Notes under the pieces: generated by a model
The model's database searches: none
Told to the model about the DNA's origin: nothing
What the model saw: only the letters and a program-made list of their open reading frames with translations
NCBI GenBank assembly: GCA_018304385.1
Contig: JAGVWJ010000018.1
Coordinates: 1-27,149, forward strand
Reading direction: 5' to 3'
Source: Candidatus Micrarchaeota archaeon
GTDB taxonomy: Archaea; Micrarchaeota; Micrarchaeia; Anstonellales; Bilamarchaeaceae
DNA length: 27,149 nt
Position numbers and translations under genes: made by a program
Shown here: positions 5,340-14,030 of the stretch, piece by piece
Layout: each line of letters begins with the position of its first letter
Numbering within the stretch: the first letter of the stretch is position 1

Positions 5340-5909
5340 ATGGGCAAGCTTATAATATTTGAAGGGCTCGATGCTAGCGGGAAGGGTACGCAAATAGATT
5401 TATTAAGGTCAAAATTTAACTGCACTGTTTTCAAATACCCTACTCATTCATTTTCAATTCTCGATGCTTATTTAAACAAAAAAATAGAAATAGATCGCAA
5501 GGCGCTTTTTCTTTTGTTTCTTGCTGATATTGCAAATGAGCAGCAAAAGTTAAGCGTTGCTTTAGCGCATTATGAATATGTTTTTGTTGACCGCTATGTT
5601 TTTTCCACTATCGCCTACGAGCTAGATAGTATTACTTACCAAAAGGCAAAAAAGATCGTAAGCGAAATTGATTTTATTAAGCCAGATAAGGTAGTACTAC
5701 TTGATATAGATTCGAAGACTGCGCAAACTCGCAAAATAAAACAGAAAAAGCTTGATCGCTATGAGGAAAATGCCACTTATTTAGAAAGCGTTCGTAAGAA
5801 TTTTCTTAAGCTATATGAAGATAAATTTTTAGCAGAGTGGCATAAGGTTGATGCGATGCGCAGTGTGGATGAGATACATAAAGATATTTTAAATGTTCTG
5901 AAGAAATGA
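5340..5909 (+). CDS. tmk: Thymidylate kinase
   Basis: P-loop 'IIFEGLDASGKGTQ', 'FVDRYVFSTIAY', 'KPDKVVLLDI'. Confidence 0.9.
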   Translation: MGKLIIFEGLDASGKGTQIDLLRSKFNCTVFKYPTHSFSILDAYLNKKIEIDRKALFLLFLADIANEQQKLSVALAHYEYVFVDRYVFSTIAYELDSITYQKAKKIVSEIDFIKPDKVVLLDIDSKTAQTRKIKQKKLDRYEENATYLESVRKNFLKLYEDKFLAEWHKVDAMRSVDEIHKDILNVLKK

Positions 5910-6006
5910 TTATCTACCTTTTCTTAAGGTTATTTCTAATCGTTAGAAAGCTTCATGTAGTGAGGCATGAAGATATTGGAAATATATGTTTGCTCCGTTA
6001 ATCTAG

Positions 6007-6085
6007 TGTCTTTTTTGATATATGTTGCTCCAAGGGCAAAAACGACGCAAAAGCCCTGAGAAAAAACTTGTCAAAAGACGGACAT
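6007..6085 (+). other. tRNA intron 1 in the D-loop (approx. position 15/16), ~79 nt
   Basis: Intron ends pair (GTCTTTT 6008-6014 / AAAAGAC 6073-6079), leaving a 3-nt AGT bulge and an imperfect ATCT/GGAC helix (relaxed BHB). Internal hairpin AGGGC/GCCCT. Boundary uncertain by ~1 nt. Confidence 0.75.
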
Positions 6086-6130
6086 CCCGGCCAAGGATGC
6101 AGGACTTTCAATCCTGTAACCCGGGTTCAA

Positions 6131-6188
6131 AATTTTAGGAGAATGACCTTTATTGGCGGTTTTGGGCCGCCTTTTCCTAAAAGGCGGA
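6131..6188 (+). other. tRNA intron 2 in the T-loop (approx. position 58/59-59/60), ~58 nt
   Basis: Insertion between TTCAA and ATCCCGG; ends pair as TTTTAGGAGAA / TTTTCCTAAAA; the BHB central helix is poor. Boundary ambiguous within the A-run. Confidence 0.75.
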
Positions 6189-6192
6189 ATCC

Positions 6193-6203
6193 CGGACGGA
6201 GCA
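6193..6203 (+). repeat. att-like core copy 1 (CGGACGGAGCA = last 11 nt of tRNA-Glu)
   Basis: Identical 11-mer at 9224-9234 and 10198-10208. Confidence 0.75.
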
Positions 6204-6264
6204 TTTTAGTTTTTCGTATCAAAAAACGGAAGTTATTTAAATATAACTTACGTAAATTGATACT

Positions 6265-7164
6265 ATGAAGATTTTTCCAGAGTTGTCAAAAAACGCATGG
6301 ATAATACTACTTACTCTCAGTTATAACTCTGGAACAGCTGCTCAAATCGCTAGAGAATCAAGCCTTCGCTTAAATCGCATCTCGGAAGCCTTAGATAAAC
6401 TCGAGGAATTTAAAATAATAAAAGACAGAGGAAGAAAACAGCAACTTTCATTAGACTCAACGATGAAAATTACCTTAAGCAAACTCTTAGTAGGTAACTC
6501 CAGAGATAATCTGGCAGAATCACTTGAAGGAAAAAGGCTTAACGTTCTTTTTCAAATCCTTGAAAGCTATGACACGGTTAAAAAATTAAATCTCATTACC
6601 GGATATTCTGTGCCTACAATAAAAAGAATATTGAATAGCTTTCAAAGAGACTTGCTCGTATACCAACCCAAGAAAAGTATTTATAAAATACGTGATGAGT
6701 TCTTACCTAAAATCAAAGAGCTTTATTCGTCATTTTTTGCGTGTTTTGTCGAGAGACTTCAGGGTCAAAAGATAACCTGGAAGAGGATTCTTGCCTTCGG
6801 TAATCGTGTTCTCCTTAAATCCGCTCAATCAGAATTACCTGATTTTGTTCATACTGCATTTAGCCTATTCCACAGATATGGCATTGGTCTCATTCTGACA
6901 AGTGATAATTATTTTGTAAATAAAACAGAGGTTACAAGAGAAGAAGTATTTGTACATGCGCTTGTCTTTTCAATCAATGATGAACGGTATATGCTTTACT
7001 GCAAACTTTTTGCCGACTTGAATAAGTTGACTCTAAAAAAACTGAAAAACTTACCCGCCATTTTTAGAGTTGAGAAGGAGGTGACTTCAATTTTTGAATT
7101 CCTTAGTAAAAAACCATTACCGCAAGAGTATATTGAGTTGAGGCGAGATTATGAAAGAGGTTAA
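6265..7164 (+). CDS. Winged-helix protein; putative antitoxin/regulator of the downstream nucleotidyltransferase
   Basis: Two HTH-like segments ('TAAQIARESSLRLNRISEALDKL', 'VKKLNLITGYSVPTIKRILNSF'); overlaps the next gene by 14 nt. Confidence 0.65.
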   Translation: MKIFPELSKNAWIILLTLSYNSGTAAQIARESSLRLNRISEALDKLEEFKIIKDRGRKQQLSLDSTMKITLSKLLVGNSRDNLAESLEGKRLNVLFQILESYDTVKKLNLITGYSVPTIKRILNSFQRDLLVYQPKKSIYKIRDEFLPKIKELYSSFFACFVERLQGQKITWKRILAFGNRVLLKSAQSELPDFVHTAFSLFHRYGIGLILTSDNYFVNKTEVTREEVFVHALVFSINDERYMLYCKLFADLNKLTLKKLKNLPAIFRVEKEVTSIFEFLSKKPLPQEYIELRRDYERG

Positions 7165-7933
7165 ACTATACCGAAAAGAAGACCTGATAAACGACTTAAG
7201 TGCAGTGGGCAAACGTCTGTCTCGAACAGTTTCGATTTATCTGATTGGCGGTTGTGCAATGTCTCTTAAGGATCTCAAAGAATTTACAAAAGACGTTGAT
7301 ATCATATTCACTTCGCTAGATGATCTTAATCTCTTTGAGAATGAACTAATAGCAATAGGATATGAAAGAACTCTGAAGACGCAAGTGGAATATGATCAGT
7401 TAGGTGCTTCCTCAATTCTAAGGCATACAGAACGGGCAGGTTTTGATCTATTCCATATGAAAGTCTGCAATATGCTCAGCCTCTCTGATGAAATGGTTAA
7501 ACGCTCCTCAAGGTATGATAAAATGGGCAATCTGGAGGTTTTCCTGATTTCAAACGAAGATATTGCACTATTCAAGGGAATAACAGAAAGGCCACGAGAT
7601 ATAGACGACATCTCACTATTGATAAATGCAGATAGACGAAATTTTAACTGGAACACAATCAAAGAGGAATGTGCTTCGCAGAAAGAGCATCTGAAAATCG
7701 AAGGTCATCTGTATAACCGATTGCTAGAACTTTTTGAGAAATATCAGATACGGGCGCCTATACTTTCATGGCTGAAAAATCGTGATAAGAAGGATATTCT
7801 CCATGATGTTTACGAACATCGTTTGAAGGAAGGGTTTACCCATGATCAGATAGTTGAACAATTTATTAAAGATGGATTTAGCAAAAAAGAAATCGCTGTG
7901 CTGGACAGATTTGGAAAGAAAAATAGAAAATAA
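7151..7933 (+). CDS. DUF6036/AbiEii-like nucleotidyltransferase (type IV TA-like toxin)
   Basis: Pol-beta superfamily motif 'LIGGCAMSLKDLKEFTKDVDII' (GG...TxDxD) and C-terminal 'ALFKGITERPRDIDDI' (K...R.D..D). Confidence 0.8.
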   Translation: MKEVKLYRKEDLINDLSAVGKRLSRTVSIYLIGGCAMSLKDLKEFTKDVDIIFTSLDDLNLFENELIAIGYERTLKTQVEYDQLGASSILRHTERAGFDLFHMKVCNMLSLSDEMVKRSSRYDKMGNLEVFLISNEDIALFKGITERPRDIDDISLLINADRRNFNWNTIKEECASQKEHLKIEGHLYNRLLELFEKYQIRAPILSWLKNRDKKDILHDVYEHRLKEGFTHDQIVEQFIKDGFSKKEIAVLDRFGKKNRK

Positions 7934-7935
7934 AA

Positions 7936-7956
7936 TTTACTTTTATGTAAAGTAAA
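7936..7956. terminator. AT-rich inverted repeat between convergent genes, possible bidirectional terminator
   Basis: TTTACTTT-TATGT-AAAGTAAA immediately after the NTase stop codon. Confidence 0.3.
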
Positions 7957-7981
7957 CAGAATCTGCAATCTAGACAATATA

Positions 7982-9049
7982 TCATTTTGCGCTTACATAA
8001 AATTCATCAAGATATGTTATACTTGTTAATTCCTTTATCTTTGCAGCTAACTGTGCCTTCAGTCTTATCATTGCTATCCATGCAGCTACTGGTGTATCAC
8101 AACTTAATAATCCTGATTCAAGTGATGCAAGTGTTTTGCCTCCGAAATTTGATCCTCCGAACGAAACGTTTTCTGCTGCAATTTCGTAATTTCTTAGAAT
8201 TTGTTCTGTGCTATACCAAGAAGCTGCAACCACTGCATTAGAAGATTGAAATTTATCCATCATAAAATTACATAATGCCAAATAAAAATCATCTTTTCTT
8301 GATTTCCACAATCTTTTATATAAACTTCTATTTGGGTAATCTTTATTTGATGTTGTAATAGCTCTAGCATCTTTATATAAGTTCCATAATGTTCCAAATG
8401 CTCCTAGCACATTGTTTCCAGTATTAAGTGTTACTACTGCCAATGCTTTGTAGGTTGGATTAGCATTCCAACTATATTTCTCCCCAAGTACAAGCATAGC
8501 TGTTCCAATAACTGGACCAGCTAATTGCCACAGCGCCCAAATTTCAGTTGATCTTAGTGATTCTGGTTTCTCTTCTGTTAAGCCAGCTTTGTATTTAGCT
8601 GATCTTATAATCCTTTTCCAAAAAGGCGCGAAAATTCCAAATGCTTCAATAAGCGCCGGTAACGCACGTGCGCTAATCTCCCAACCAATTCCGCTCGTTC
8701 TAGTATAGCTGCTATAGCCGTCTATTGCTACGCCTACTCCAACTCCTGCACCTATGCCGAATAATGCACCATTTCTTACATTTTTATAATCACTAAGTTC
8801 TTCACGCTGTTCAATATGTTCTTGATATTTTGTAAACACATCAGAATACCGAGTTGCCCACTTTCCTAAAAATAATTTTATTGGAGCATCTAGAGCATCA
8901 ACCCCACTGCCCGAGAAACCACTTTTAATATCAAAGCATACTTCTCCACTTATTCGATCTGCTATCTCTCTGTAGGACAAAACTCTAGTTATTGGTCTTT
9001 TGTGTTGCTTTTCACAACTTAATGAAACGTTTTTTATGAAGGTATTCAT
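7982..9049 (-). CDS. Hypothetical membrane protein (3-4 hydrophobic segments)
   Basis: Long ORF; start likely at the ATG at 9049 (MNTFIK) rather than 9088. Gly-rich hydrophobic segment 'GALFGIGAGVGVGVAI'. No family recognised. Confidence 0.7.
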   Translation of the reverse strand: MNTFIKNVSLSCEKQHKRPITRVLSYREIADRISGEVCFDIKSGFSGSGVDALDAPIKLFLGKWATRYSDVFTKYQEHIEQREELSDYKNVRNGALFGIGAGVGVGVAIDGYSSYTRTSGIGWEISARALPALIEAFGIFAPFWKRIIRSAKYKAGLTEEKPESLRSTEIWALWQLAGPVIGTAMLVLGEKYSWNANPTYKALAVVTLNTGNNVLGAFGTLWNLYKDARAITTSNKDYPNRSLYKRLWKSRKDDFYLALCNFMMDKFQSSNAVVAASWYSTEQILRNYEIAAENVSFGGSNFGGKTLASLESGLLSCDTPVAAWIAMIRLKAQLAAKIKELTSITYLDEFYVSAK

Positions 9050-9215
9050 AATAATATTATATACACATATAATTATAAATAGTAACATTATTGTAGCCTC
9101 TAACAGAGCTTGGAAGAAGCGAGTAAGCTTTGCTAATCTTTAAATATGTCATCTGCAATATCTTGCATAAACATGCTGGATGTTGTACGAAATAAACGGA
9201 TTATTAGTCCAGAGC

Positions 9216-9234
9216 TAATAGAACGGACGGAGCA
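9216..9234 (+). repeat. 19-bp direct repeat copy A (TAATAGAACGGACGGAGCA), contains the tRNA 3' core
   Basis: Exact match to 10190-10208; last 11 nt (12 including the following T) match tRNA 6193-6204. Confidence 0.9.
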
Positions 9235-9271
9235 TATCTATTTTTTACCTCTTCTTAACAAAGATGAACTT

Positions 9272-10177
9272 ATGATGCGTGAACTAACTCTAGAAGAAGC
9301 GAAACCTATCTGGGACAGCTTTGTTCCTGAAAAGCAGGTATGGACTGACGATTGGGACATTCGAGTAGCAATATGTAAAGAATATGACTACAGACCACTT
9401 ATTTTATATGATGGAAAAAATTTCTTTCCATTACAATCTGAACCTGAAAATAATTTCTATTCAATCCTTGGTGGGATAAGTGTAGAGAAGAATTACATCA
9501 CTTTCGATCCTGAGTTTATGAAAACAACTAGAGAGATTCCTGAAAACATATATTTTGATTTCCTAATTGACAAGTTCGATGGTTGCACAGAAGGTGTCTG
9601 CCCACAATTCTTCATCAATCTCACTAACATAAACAACATAGAAGATTATATCAAACGCTTTTCCAAGAAGCATCAGAAAAATTTTAAGAGATCTTACAAA
9701 CAGTTTGGAGAGTACGAATTCGTAAAACAAGGAACGCTCAAAGAGTTGGAAAATCTTAATATAAATATATTTGGAGAAAAATCAGATTTTGTTTCTGAAG
9801 ATAGAGGATGCTACGACATTCTTGATAAAGACTCGCGAACTGAATACTGGTCAATAATTAAAGATGGTGAAGTCGTTTCAATAATCCAATGCTTCTTCTA
9901 CAATCGCACTGTGTCAGTATGTGTCTGGGGGACGAATGGAAAGTATACTGATACTCTAAAAGTAATGTTGGCAGAGGGAATAGCATTGGCTAAAAACAGG
10001 CATTGTACGAGAATTGATTATGCTCCAACATACTCTAGTTGGAAACACTTTTATCGTTTGGATAGTGCACCATTGTGGAGATACAAACGTGGCAACATTC
10101 CAGACTCAGTTGATATAATAGAATATGGGATTCCACCAGATGAACAAATCAGGCTAACTGCTGAAGGGGGATTATAA
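9272..10177 (+). CDS. GNAT superfamily (FemAB/Acetyltransf_6-like) acyltransferase
   Basis: 'FFINL...IEDYIKRFSKKHQKNFKRSYK' helix motif, then 'WSIIKDGEVVSIIQCF' and 'IALAKNRHCTRIDY'. Start placed at the ATG at 9272, downstream of the repeat; the track's 9146 start runs through the repeat. Confidence 0.65.
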   Translation: MMRELTLEEAKPIWDSFVPEKQVWTDDWDIRVAICKEYDYRPLILYDGKNFFPLQSEPENNFYSILGGISVEKNYITFDPEFMKTTREIPENIYFDFLIDKFDGCTEGVCPQFFINLTNINNIEDYIKRFSKKHQKNFKRSYKQFGEYEFVKQGTLKELENLNINIFGEKSDFVSEDRGCYDILDKDSRTEYWSIIKDGEVVSIIQCFFYNRTVSVCVWGTNGKYTDTLKVMLAEGIALAKNRHCTRIDYAPTYSSWKHFYRLDSAPLWRYKRGNIPDSVDIIEYGIPPDEQIRLTAEGGL

Positions 10178-10189
10178 ATAATATTGGGG

Positions 10190-10208
10190 TAATAGAACGG
10201 ACGGAGCA
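10190..10208 (+). repeat. 19-bp direct repeat copy B (TAATAGAACGGACGGAGCA)
   Basis: Exact match to 9216-9234; 12 bp after the GNAT stop codon. Confidence 0.9.
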
Positions 10209-10218
10209 ATAACTATTT

Positions 10219-10703
10219 TTAAAGCGTTTGTACTTCGACTATTGCATCTCTTTTTAATACAATTGCTATGGGTACGTCTTTTTGCCGACCGATTGCTCTT
10301 CTAACTCTATGCGCCGCGCCTTCTCCAAATCTTTTTAGGATATCTCCAATTATCCCTACCTCAAGATCGCTAGTTAAAACAACTTCATAGCCCAGCTCTC
10401 TTAAAACGTCAGATAATCTGGAATCTTGTCCTAATCCATCAAAACTATCTAAAAAAGAGTTGCTAAAAAGCGGGTCCATTCCGTAATATCTGGTCTGTGC
10501 CAGTTATCATTTTCAACTGTGCCTGATGCATCTAGCACTTTAGCTTCTTCTTTAATTCTTGTAGCTATGACTTTGCCATCTGGGCCTGCGTAAGCCTCAG
10601 CAATTCTGCGATCCGCTGCAAGAAATATACCATCTTGTCTGGAGGCTCTAGGTCTTTTATCCATAGCCTTTCCATGGTAAAACGTTCTACATACTAAAGT
10701 CAT
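10219..10703 (-). pseudogene. ADP-ribosyltransferase-like gene split into two overlapping frames (10449-10703 and 10219-10479)
   Basis: The upstream frame has 'FYHG...GIFLAADRRIAEAYAG..GKVI...KVLD'. The downstream frame has 'LRELGYEVV' and a terminal beta-strand 'IAIVLKRDAI'. A -1 shift on the U6 run before the first stop fuses them. Confidence 0.55.
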
Positions 10704-11063: not shown

Positions 11064-12725
11064 ATGCCACGAAGACATGCTAATCCAAACCAACTTTCAT
11101 TATTTGCACTTAGCCCAGCCGTAGCTCCAGCAGTACAACCACGAATTATTCCACCACCATTGATAGATAGGCCAGCCACTAGCCACCAGCCACCAGCTAA
11201 TAGCAGTAGCCTACTAGCCCCTCGCAGCGAACCATTGCGCGATTATCAAATAGAAGCAATTGCGTTTGCCAAACAGCATGGAAGCGCTATAATAGTATTG
11301 CCAACTAATACTGGGAAAACAGAGGTAGAATTTCATTTAGCAGCAGATGTTTTAGAACAAGGTAAGGTAATTTGCGTAGCAGAAAAAACATTACTTTGCG
11401 AGCAGCATTTTAGAGAAGCAAAAGAAAGAATCAGATTAAAAGAAGATGAGGTAGTACTTGCAATTGGAAACAGCAGAGAACGTGCAGCAGATAAAAAATC
11501 ATTTTATGCTAATGCTAGATTAATAATTGGCACGCCAGAAACGCTTGTTAATGACATAGCAAGTGGTGCGCTTGATCTAAAAGACGTTAAATTGGGATTA
11601 TTAGATGAGGTTCATCATACGCAAGGCAATGATGCATATGCTAAGCTTGGCGCAATGTTAGCCTCTGTAAACATAAATCGTGTTGGTTTATCTGCCTCGC
11701 CTGCAGAAAGCGGTGATCGCTTACAAGCATTATTAGAAATGCTTCAAATAAGCATAGGTGCTGATGCAGTATTTATTAGAACAGATAAAGATACTGAAAA
11801 ATATGTAAGAAAACCAGCTGAGATAAAGGTTTTTGTTACCCTTGAGGATGAAAGAAAGCGTGCGCTAACACTCTTATTTCGAATAGCAGGAGATATTTTT
11901 GGAAATATGCTCGCTAGTGCTCGCACAGCCAGATTAGGATCTTTAACCGCAAATTATTCTTTTTCGAAATTTCGCTTGCCATTGCATGAGGAATTAGAAA
12001 ATGGACATAGTATAGTTGATGATGCTTGCAAGCGCTTGCGAGGAAAAAAGCCATGGGATCTTAGCGAATCAGAACGCGCAATTTTTGATGCAATGAAATA
12101 TCATGCAGCGCTTTGGAAGATTACCAAGTGTTATGATTATCTTGCCCGCATTGGAAGCGAGGAATTCAACGAGTTTGCTGGAAAAATATTGGAAGATAGA
12201 AAAACAAAAGCAGCAGAACTTATAAGAGATGATGGAAGATTTAGAGAATGTGTTCGTGTAGCAGCAACGCTATCAGATCATCCAAAAACTGATGCTATAT
12301 TGCGCTTATTAGCAAGCAATGACAGGCAGGGAATAATATTTGTAGAAACGCACGCACACGCGAGACGACTAGCCAATTTTTTAAATGAGCATGGGATTAG
12401 TGCTCATGAACTTTTAGGAAGCAGTGGAATGACTAAGAAAAGACAATCAGGAGTCCGCGCGGATTTTGAAGCTGGAAAATATCGCATCTTAGTAGCAACA
12501 AGCGTTGCAGAAGAAGGATTGCATTTGCCAGTATTGCATACTGGGATATTCTATTCTCCAGCACATACCAGCATAAGTTATCAGCAAAGACGCGGCCGTG
12601 TTCGTGATGCTGAAGGCAGGGTATTCATATTAATTGCAGATGAAACCAGTGATGTTTCATTATATTACGCTACGCGTGGAAGGGACAGAAGCGTGGCAAA
12701 GGCTTTAGAAGGTTTAAGGGCTTAA
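11064..12725 (+). CDS. SF2 helicase, Hef/FANCM (ERCC4-related) family, helicase domains only
   Basis: Q motif 'LRDYQ', 'IVLPTNTGKT', 'GTPETL', 'LDEVHH', 'LSASP', 'LVATSVAEEGL', motif VI 'QRRGRV'; no nuclease domain. Confidence 0.8.
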   Translation: MPRRHANPNQLSLFALSPAVAPAVQPRIIPPPLIDRPATSHQPPANSSSLLAPRSEPLRDYQIEAIAFAKQHGSAIIVLPTNTGKTEVEFHLAADVLEQGKVICVAEKTLLCEQHFREAKERIRLKEDEVVLAIGNSRERAADKKSFYANARLIIGTPETLVNDIASGALDLKDVKLGLLDEVHHTQGNDAYAKLGAMLASVNINRVGLSASPAESGDRLQALLEMLQISIGADAVFIRTDKDTEKYVRKPAEIKVFVTLEDERKRALTLLFRIAGDIFGNMLASARTARLGSLTANYSFSKFRLPLHEELENGHSIVDDACKRLRGKKPWDLSESERAIFDAMKYHAALWKITKCYDYLARIGSEEFNEFAGKILEDRKTKAAELIRDDGRFRECVRVAATLSDHPKTDAILRLLASNDRQGIIFVETHAHARRLANFLNEHGISAHELLGSSGMTKKRQSGVRADFEAGKYRILVATSVAEEGLHLPVLHTGIFYSPAHTSISYQQRRGRVRDAEGRVFILIADETSDVSLYYATRGRDRSVAKALEGLRA

Positions 12726-12731
12726 TAATCT

Positions 12732-14030
12732 ATGGAAAAAAGGCTTTTTCATCTTATTATTTTGGCATTTATTATTCGCATAATCCCCTTGCTAGCTATT
12801 GCATTTTTAGGAACAAATAATGCGCTTTATGATGGCGATTCTGGTAGCTATACTGTAATGGCAAAATCATTTGCAAAAGGCGATATTTTATTTAAAGAAG
12901 AGGAGGCACGTTTATCAAGTTTTTCTAGAACTCCAGGATATCCTATATTTTTAGGTATTTTTTATTTTCTTTCTTTAAGCGATACTTTTATTGCGTTTAT
13001 TCAAATAATAATTGATTGCGCAGCGCTATATTTTATTTATAAAACTGTTGATACTGTTTTTGGCAATAAGGCAGCGTTTTTTGCCTCTTTGCTTTATGCA
13101 TTGAATCCTACAATGATCTTATTCTCATTTAAAATTCTCACAGAGAGTTTGTTCAATTTTGTTTTTATTACTGCGAATTATTATTTTGTTCGTTCTTTAT
13201 ATAAAAATGAGAAATCAGAACTTACAGTTGGCATTCTTTTTTCTATATTAAGTTTAATCCGGCCTGTTGGCATATTTTTTTCATTAACATATGCACTGGT
13301 TCTATTTGCTAAAAATCGAAATTTGAAATCAGCCTTCTTATTATTTATACCATCGCTTATACTGCCAGCACTTTGGATGATAAGAAACCAGCAGGTTCTT
13401 GGTTATTTTATAATATCTGCTATACCAGAAGTTAATGTACTTTGCTGGCAAGCAACATTTTTAGCAAATGATAATGTTGATATGGAAAAATGGGGCAAAT
13501 TTATAGATGAATATAAGGTAAAGGATTACACTGAATGTAATCGGTTGCCTTATGAAAAAGTGCATGAGGGTGCGCCCATTGCGACTAAGTTTATTTTAGA
13601 TAACTTTGGTCTTTATATTAAATATTTTGTTAAAGCAGTGATTCTTTTCTTCGCGCCAGCAACGCCAAACTACGTGCTATCTGCATTCGGCGTAGAGGGA
13701 CAGGTTGTTCATTTCTCTGAAGTGTTATTCAAAATTGGCTTGGATTTTGGTAAAATAGTAAGCATAATTGCAGAACGTCCGCTTTATCTTGCTTTATTTG
13801 CGCTTTCAGTTATTTATGAATTAATTTTGTATTACCTTTTTGCTAGCGCTTTATTAAAACTGATAAAAGAAAAGAAGCATAATTATCTATTGCTGCTTTT
13901 AGCATTGTTATTCTTATATACTATAATTAGTGCTGGGCTCGTAAGCATGTTTTCATCTTATAGATATAGAATGCCTATAGAAATATTCTTGATAATAATT
14001 GCGTCTTATTATAAATTTACTAAAAATTAG
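12732..14030 (+). CDS. GT-C fold membrane glycosyltransferase (GT39/PMT/ArnT-like)
   Basis: Multi-TM with 'DSGSY', 'RTPGYPIFL', 'ILTESLF', 'LIRP' and C-terminal 'RYRMP'. Confidence 0.8.
   Translation: MEKRLFHLIILAFIIRIIPLLAIAFLGTNNALYDGDSGSYTVMAKSFAKGDILFKEEEARLSSFSRTPGYPIFLGIFYFLSLSDTFIAFIQIIIDCAALYFIYKTVDTVFGNKAAFFASLLYALNPTMILFSFKILTESLFNFVFITANYYFVRSLYKNEKSELTVGILFSILSLIRPVGIFFSLTYALVLFAKNRNLKSAFLLFIPSLILPALWMIRNQQVLGYFIISAIPEVNVLCWQATFLANDNVDMEKWGKFIDEYKVKDYTECNRLPYEKVHEGAPIATKFILDNFGLYIKYFVKAVILFFAPATPNYVLSAFGVEGQVVHFSEVLFKIGLDFGKIVSIIAERPLYLALFALSVIYELILYYLFASALLKLIKEKKHNYLLLLLALLFLYTIISAGLVSMFSSYRYRMPIEIFLIIIASYYKFTKN

Follow-up and report, generated by a model that had tools for sequence, protein, structure and literature searches.

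We analyzed a 27,149-nucleotide stretch of DNA from a Candidatus Micrarchaeota archaeon (contig JAGVWJ010000018.1 of assembly GCA_018304385.1, positions 1 to 27,149 of the forward strand, hereafter the window), in which the last 11 nucleotides of a tRNA-Glu(UUC) gene recur twice downstream and bound two tandem units, a 3-kb insert with three genes (unit E) and a 974-bp unit with one gene. The results indicate that this array likely consists of decayed islands at the 3′ end of the tRNA gene, E being a reduced member of an island family that has no integrase of its own and the 974-bp unit an older accretion. The underlying mechanism is probably site-specific integration of the ordinary kind at a tRNA 3′ end, with later loss of the integrase and accretion. 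What is new is the island family, which is specific to this lineage, together with a clear example of integration in the terminal exon of an intron-split tRNA. The genome under study (G000; 1.53 Mb in 65 contigs, 89% complete), of which the window is contig C44, was compared with relatives that include two genomes of the same genus, G001 and G002; family counts refer to 176 genomes of the order. The features of the array are as follows:

5340–5909, + strand: thymidylate kinase gene (tmk; PF02223, E = 2.6e-26), the conserved left flank of the tRNA-Glu site
5992–6203, + strand: tRNA-Glu(UUC) gene, with exons at 5992–6006, 6086–6130 and 6189–6203
6193–6204, + strand: repeat copy 1, the putative left attachment-site (attL) core, made up of the last 11 nt of the tRNA plus a T
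6204–9215, no strand assigned: unit E, the integrase-less 3-kb insert, absent in G001 and G002 and homologous to an island of genome G117
6216–6243, + strand: conserved leader GTATCAAAAAACGGAAGTTATTTAAATA, with a B recognition element (BRE)/TATA-like promoter ahead of the following gene; 27 of 28 nt are invariant among G000, G005 and G117
6265–7164, + strand: winged helix-turn-helix (wHTH) protein with an HVO_2833-like C-terminal domain (PF24271, E = 3.6e-7, under the curated cut-off; weak HTH_36 match)
7151–7933, + strand: DUF6036 nucleotidyltransferase (NTase)-fold protein (PF19502, E = 1.1e-8)
7982–9088, − strand: orphan of 368 amino acids (aa) with hydrophobic, Gly-rich stretches and no Pfam, NCBIfam or PADLOC match
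9135–9215, + strand: right-end arm of E, which runs from a TATA-like AATCTTTAAATAT through CTGCAATAT...ACATGCTGGATGTTG to a short hairpin ahead of the core
9216–9234, + strand: repeat copy 2, the putative right attachment site (attR) of E, made up of 8 nt of element end and the 11-nt core
9272–10177, + strand: gene for a predicted FemX/MprF-like tandem-GNAT protein of 301 aa, the sole gene of the 974-bp unit
10190–10208, + strand: repeat copy 3, the distal attR-type 19-mer, at which synteny with G002 stops

An exact search placed the 11-mer CGGACGGAGCA on the + strand at 6193–6203, 9224–9234 and 10198–10208, and the resulting spacings of 3031 bp (copies 1 to 2) and 974 bp (copies 2 to 3) agree with the unit lengths given by an earlier reading of the bare sequence (the first-pass annotation), as do the positions and the common orientation of the copies. 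Its statement that the two downstream copies extend to an identical 19-mer was likewise correct, as the exact 19-mer TAATAGAACGGACGGAGCA starts at both 9216 and 10190; copies 1 and 2 have 12 bp in common (the 11-mer plus one extra T). No further match to the 11-mer was found in the window with up to one mismatch, where 0.07 are expected by chance and none of 100 shuffles gave three, and a search of the whole 1.53-Mb assembly, as that annotation had proposed, returned the three window copies and no others. Degenerate cores farther downstream occurred at chance level only, and screening the whole genome for other short-range repeats gave too much noise to be of use. Further, the three copies are present with identical spacing and ∼100% identity in eight contigs from different European Nucleotide Archive (ENA) and Logan samples. 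Because these eight independent assemblies carry the same layout, the array is not an assembly artefact, the outcome that the first-pass annotation had named as a refutation of its proposal. Presence/absence variants of the units were not found among the eight.

The tRNA gene at the left end of the array was missed by both ARAGORN and Rfam on the raw window, and its exons therefore had to be spliced manually; once joined, they gave a clean canonical tRNA-Glu(ttc) cloverleaf in ARAGORN. The gene is interrupted by a D-loop intron (6007–6085, 79 nt) and a T-loop intron (6131–6188, 58 nt). The repeat lies wholly within the 15-nt last exon, where it comprises three T-stem bases, the 3′ acceptor strand and the discriminator, and the T-loop intron is only 4 nt upstream of the core. 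The spliced coordinates hence confirmed that the duplicated core is inside the last exon, downstream of the T-loop intron. Disruption of this kind appears to be the rule in this genome: ARAGORN with intron search found 4 tRNA genes in the whole of G000, which means that nearly all of its tRNA genes must be disrupted in ways that evade standard finders. A broad-specificity ε2 splicing endonuclease and many non-canonical introns are documented for Micrarchaeota (PMC3488258).

The relatives provide the corresponding empty sites. The order tmk, then tRNA-Glu(UUC), is kept in both G001 and G002. In G002, the tRNA gene and its core are followed by TATTTATTT and then by the FemX-like gene, 45 nt past the tRNA, and in G001 they are followed by an unrelated gene. 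Neither DNA nor proteins of E were found in G001 or G002, although DNA-level searches there, whether with E or with the sequence to the right of copy 3, were fruitless because the species are too diverged. Comparison of the relatives for breakpoints at the repeats, also proposed in the first-pass annotation, thus showed that E is absent in G002 with the breakpoint at the core and absent in G001. Consistent with this, the flank of copy 2 (core plus TATCTATTT) matches the flank that follows the tRNA in G002 (core plus TATTTATTT), and the right flank of copy 2, TATCTATTTTT, is identical to the native trailer of another archaeal tRNA-Glu in metagenome data. The order at copy 1 (tRNA, core, element) and that at copy 2 (element, core, native-type trailer) therefore make the two copies attL-like and attR-like, respectively. 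A simple inversion relative to G002 was rejected, as there is no inverted copy of the core and both flanks differ.

Both ends of E are homologous to an island that encodes its own integrase. The 8.1-kb island of G117 comprises tRNA-His, a 395-aa tyrosine integrase (PF00589 plus a C-terminal zinc ribbon), a 28-nt leader, wHTH and NTase genes, a MacB/FtsX-CARDB-ABC transporter set and an ArsR-type regulator; its right end consists of an arm homologous to window positions 9135–9215 and then a 15-bp tRNA-His-end repeat, 8.1 kb from the first. The homology with E covers the leader, the wHTH and NTase genes and the right arm. The empty sites and these integrase-bearing homologues with the same end sequences together support the view, taken from the outset, that the repeats arose by duplication of an attachment site at a tRNA 3′ end. 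The same arrangement is found again in G013, G111, G016 and G081, where an integrase stands beside the tRNA and the tRNA 3′ end is repeated over 12–16 bp:

G013: integrase beside the tRNA, 14-bp repeat, 5.5 kb
G111: integrase beside the tRNA, 16-bp repeat, 18 kb
G081: tRNA-Asn, then the integrase, ∼7 kb, then arm and core
G016: tRNA-Glu(CUC) with three cores

The locus of G016 (L104, G016:C1 805–7750) is a tandem array in its own right, in which tRNA-Glu(CUC) precedes a 6-kb integrase element, itself succeeded by a 938-bp unit whose sole gene encodes a DNA methyltransferase; both are bounded by the 12-bp tRNA end, and they have homologous left ends and right arms of ∼75 nt. From its sequence, the 938-bp unit looks like a miniature non-autonomous element. 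In G005, the leader and the wHTH/NTase pair lie 4 nt after tRNA-Asn with no integrase and with the NTase gene broken by stops, which suggests that island decay is common. A second right end of the family is present in G000 itself, on contig C51 (1441–1560, locus L120), with ∼90% identity over the ACATGCTGGATGTTG region. This end, like that of the G117 island, aligns with the right arm of E; it closes in a different tRNA-like core, GTTCGACAGGAGCG, which is unique in the assembly, and its body is lost at the contig end.

The integrase family (∼400 aa, C-terminal zinc ribbon) was found in 73 of the 176 genomes, as many as ten times in one genome. G001 has the family; it was not detected in G002 or in the 89%-complete G000, where tblastn with the G117 integrase gave no match. 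As the first-pass annotation had stated, neither unit contains a recombinase: profile searches of 6204–10208 gave no match to PF00589 or PF16795. The tyrosine recombinase that it suggested seeking elsewhere in the genome came down to a single PF00589 gene, on contig C15, which was rejected as a trans-acting candidate because it does not resemble the island integrase. No description of the family came up in full-text searches of the literature on integrases and integrative elements. The island family is widespread in these tiny symbionts and undescribed to the extent covered by these searches, and integrase islands of this kind are likely a main route for accessory genes into such symbionts.

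We propose the following scenario. Micrarchaeota islands with the ∼400-aa zinc-ribbon tyrosine integrase would use the last 11–12 bp of the tRNA-Glu(UUC) gene as attB. Recombination between the core carried by such an island and the tRNA end would have duplicated the core at 6193 and 9224 and displaced the former neighbour, the FemX-like gene, by 3 kb. Unit E would retain both island ends, namely the leader, wHTH and DUF6036 genes on the left and the right arm; as it has no integrase, it would be a reduced, non-autonomous derivative. The 974-bp unit would most likely be an older accreted unit, with copy 3 as its old attR, since newcomers would enter at the tRNA and displace earlier units to positions farther out, where decay follows. 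Excision of E would be expected to leave the junction ATCC + core + TATCTATTT and to yield a circle with the junction TAATAGAA + core + TTTTAGTTTTT. Given that no cognate integrase was found in the assembled genome, the array is probably now fixed.

Several observations weigh against this scenario. Copies 2 and 3 share 8 extra bases, TAATAGAA; had the 974-bp unit arisen before the divergence from G002 (74% protein identity), a neutral 8-mer would be expected to differ by now. In G002 no distal repeat follows the FemX-like gene, and the 974-bp unit has no counterpart of the ∼80-nt right arm of E and its relatives. A recent, independent acquisition of the 974-bp unit is accordingly a possibility. 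The integrase may also be present and unassembled, given a genome completeness of 89% and the frequent loss of mobile elements in binning. Finally, neither an excision product nor a circle was seen, so that the case for an integrase-mediated origin is one of homology.

The alternatives differ in what they make of the repeats. Their shortness is all that speaks for chance or an assembly artefact, and with three copies seen against 0.07 expected, none elsewhere in the genome and an identical layout in eight independent assemblies, the probability of either is practically negligible. It is also very improbable that copies 2 and 3 serve split or trans-spliced tRNAs as functional 3′ exons. The heavy disruption of tRNA genes in G000, where ARAGORN finds so few, would be in keeping with such exons, but the extra copies hold just 3 of the 5 T-stem bases, and the T-stem cannot form because AGAA rather than ATCC precedes them. 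Matching 5′ pieces are, moreover, absent from the assembly, as the 11-mer and its partner sequences are confined to this locus. A further alternative, which we regard as quite unlikely, is that the FemX-like gene is plain chromosomal flank and that the distal 19-mer arose by a secondary rearrangement at the attR of E, either integrase-mediated or illegitimate, for example through a second copy of E that was later deleted. The perfect identity of the 19-mer in copies 2 and 3, including the 8 element-derived bases, the absence of the distal repeat from G002 and a gene order past copy 3 unlike that of G002 and G001 would all follow from such an event. No second copy of E or scar is visible, however, and the FemX-like gene occurs in variable, repeat-bounded regions behind another tRNA in other genera, so that accessory status fits it better than that of a stable flank.

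The first-pass annotation had favored an undescribed, integron-like system of cassettes mobilized in trans; on such a platform, single genes would be captured between attachment-type repeats and moved by an integrase encoded elsewhere. As in integrons, small gene units stand in tandem, parted by recombination-site-like repeats, and one of them, the 974-bp unit, consists of a lone gene with a perfect 19-mer on either side. Similar units exist in relatives, since the G016 methyltransferase unit has homologous ends and stands behind an integrase element, the FemX-like gene of G101 lies between arm-plus-core units, and the presence or absence of that gene differs exactly at the tRNA-Asn end between G112 and G096. 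On the other hand, no integron integrase was found at or near the array, and there is no IntI, attI, Pc promoter or attC-type palindrome: each unit closes with 8 nt and the tRNA core, what stands before copy 2 is no more than a short hairpin, and no attC-like structure is shared. E has three genes rather than one and is a cut-down member of widespread islands that carry their own tyrosine integrase beside the tRNA, and all that the 974-bp unit shares with the end of E is the 8 nt and the core, with no arm. Arrays elsewhere resemble decay products, in which pseudogenes are frequent. Mobilization in trans also failed to find support, as the family integrase was not found in G000, the eight assemblies are without variants, and a metagenome scan for the core with a T-run flank, in which the source samples and near-identical records may be left out, returned 40 loci, mostly bacterial terminators, with no circle junction and no empty site of the species. 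Taken together, these results make the integron-like platform unlikely.

A broader proposal along these lines, which we consider doubtful, is that tRNA 3′ ends in this Micrarchaeota order serve as gene-capture platforms, at which family integrases acting in trans stack and shuffle core-bounded, non-autonomous units by means of a short core adapted to introns. If this were true, the units would include three-gene modules, single genes (the FemX-like gene and the G016 methyltransferase) and, at the lower end, ∼65-nt hairpin-plus-core units, and the short terminal core would make the abundant tRNA introns useless as protection.

Randau and Söll are said to have proposed that tRNA introns protect against integration. 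The proposal has been invoked specifically for Micrarchaeota (ARMAN-2; PMC3488258), and the present case, an integrative element in the last exon of a tRNA with a T-loop intron, bears on it. The first-pass annotation had inferred a recombinase that bypasses the T-loop intron, but cores of 12–16 bp at the extreme 3′ end are used by the family on intron-free tRNAs too. A short terminal core is therefore a property of the family, and no intron-specific bypass needs to be invoked; a family that requires just the terminal 11–16 bp would be unhindered by any known intron position.

Among known systems, the closest in form are tRNA-targeting genomic islands and integrative elements (archaeal pNOB8-type and bacterial P4-like, with the tyrosine integrase left intact on integration), which share with the array the insertion at a tRNA 3′ end, direct tRNA-end repeats and a cargo of accessory genes and, with its relatives, the integrase beside the tRNA. 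Repeats of the tRNA end, an empty site with its breakpoint at the repeat and homology at both ends were all found here, whereas an internal integrase was not; the array also differs in that its 11–12-bp core is confined to the last exon of a multi-intron tRNA. Cis-mobilizable elements (CIMEs), whose tandem accretion with integrative elements in bacteria has been reviewed (PMC5704250), are likewise att-flanked units without recombination genes that stand in tandem with related elements at one attachment site. Unlike the present case, however, they are defined by the integrase of a co-resident element, which was not found in the 89%-complete G000, and mobilization was not seen here. In the tycheposons of Prochlorococcus (bioRxiv 10.1101/2020.12.28.424599), also from a streamlined host, successive integrations at tRNA sites displace the older elements outward, and partial tRNAs and degraded elements remain. 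Those belong to another domain of life and another integrase lineage; in the present case the tRNAs are split by introns, and the remnants include single genes and ∼65-nt hairpin-plus-core units. The array fits stepwise accretion at the tRNA with later decay, as documented for tycheposons and CIMEs.

The gene of the 974-bp unit had been called a GNAT gene. Pfam gave no match to it, and in this respect the assignment lacks profile support; a FemX-like tandem-GNAT fold is nevertheless predicted. The AlphaFold2 model, built from 16 orthologues, has a pLDDT of 67 and two disordered stretches, and its top Foldseek matches are FemX, aminoacyl-tRNA-dependent peptide synthases, MprF and VipF (E = 2.5e-6, TM 0.47–0.5). 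Copy 2 falls within a spurious N-terminal extension of the open reading frame at 9146–10177, as orthologues begin at the ATG at 9272; an exact-protein look-up of the 301-aa product returned no record, probably since gene callers use the longer start.

The FemX-like gene was found in 22 of the 176 genomes. In most of the 17 relatives' loci inspected, it lies 3′ of a tRNA, and the tRNA end is often repeated immediately ahead of its start. Two other genera have the gene downstream of tRNA-Asn(GUU), with variable inserts of 12 nt to 8.4 kb between the two and often with a tRNA-Asn-end copy 65–90 nt before the gene start. In G112 it stands between tRNA-Asn and the genes c76/c77, and in G096 this tRNA has behind it one short repeat unit and then c76/c77, the FemX-like gene being absent; in G101 arm-plus-core units flank it on both sides. 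We also observed that in some genomes (G112 and G002) no more than 12–45 nt separate the tRNA gene from the start of the FemX-like gene. With so little space for a promoter of its own, the gene might conceivably be co-transcribed with the tRNA or functionally linked to it.

Within E, the wHTH and DUF6036 genes probably encode a toxin–antitoxin-like pair, as judged from their pairing: an NTase gene is always adjacent to the wHTH homologues (44–58% identity). The DUF6036 NTase occurs patchily, in 36 of the 176 genomes and often with internal stops; its closest relatives (62–68% identity) are in other genera, and it was not found in the other two genomes of the genus. Pfam assigns DUF6036 and HVO_2833_C to the pair rather than AbiEi/AbiEii, the NTase matched no PADLOC model and its partner gave weak helix-turn-helix matches only, and a PDB sequence search and a literature search for DUF6036 gave nothing. 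The orphan has a marginal PHROG match (E = 0.046) and was detected, as two fragments, in one other genome only; an Atlas search with it returned low scores only.

To the right of copy 3, the gene order differs from that of both G002 and G001, and the first gene lies outside the repeat-bounded units:

10219–10703, − strand: small gene, split in this contig, with a weak ART-PolyVal match (E = 0.19)

In other assemblies, which have 73 nt more at 10454, this gene is an intact 185-aa open reading frame, and several assemblies break at 10359, which suggests strain heterogeneity there. The region at 11064–14030 encodes a DEAD/ResIII helicase, which matches defence-system helicase models (PbeA, E = 3e-23), and a PMT_2 glycosyltransferase. 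Neither has an orthologue in G001 or G002, the best same-genus matches being 28–31% identical, and the variable region may therefore extend past copy 3.

A TATA-like motif, AAYCTTTAAATA, is conserved in three right ends of the family, ∼85 nt before the core and pointing to it:

window: 9135–9147
L120: 1458–1470
L075: 15141–15153

From its position, this motif could drive the displaced flank gene or, in the circular form, the integrase. In another genus, tandem units of ∼55–70 nt stand right behind tRNA-Asn (tRNA-His in G117), each ending in the last 11 nt of the tRNA, at the following loci:

L058: 12182–12380
L049, L055, L056, L113 and L117
L075: 15300–15390

Each of these units has a hairpin before the core, the outer stem of which pairs with the left part of the core, and compensatory changes were seen in 3 of the 13 predicted pairs.

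The intron content of the orthologous tRNA-Glu(UUC) gene differs among all three species of the genus. The G002 gene has no D-loop intron and a T-loop intron different from that of G000, and the G001 gene has no T-loop intron and a short insert in the D region, which indicates fast intron turnover. Among the three species, the carrier of the insert is the one with the most introns in tRNA-Glu, an anecdotal observation at n = 3. The 3′ part of the T-loop intron, GTTTTGGGCCGCCTTTTCCTAAAAGGCGGAA (window 6152–6189), is a conserved module of ∼35 nt, which is also found at the 3′ ends of inserts in other tRNA-like genes, at differing tRNA positions, on G000 contigs C40, C16, C54, C20, C55, C38 and C33 and in relatives. 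Its hairpin, CCGCCTTTT-CCT-AAAAGGCGG, covaries (GTGCC/GGCAC variants).

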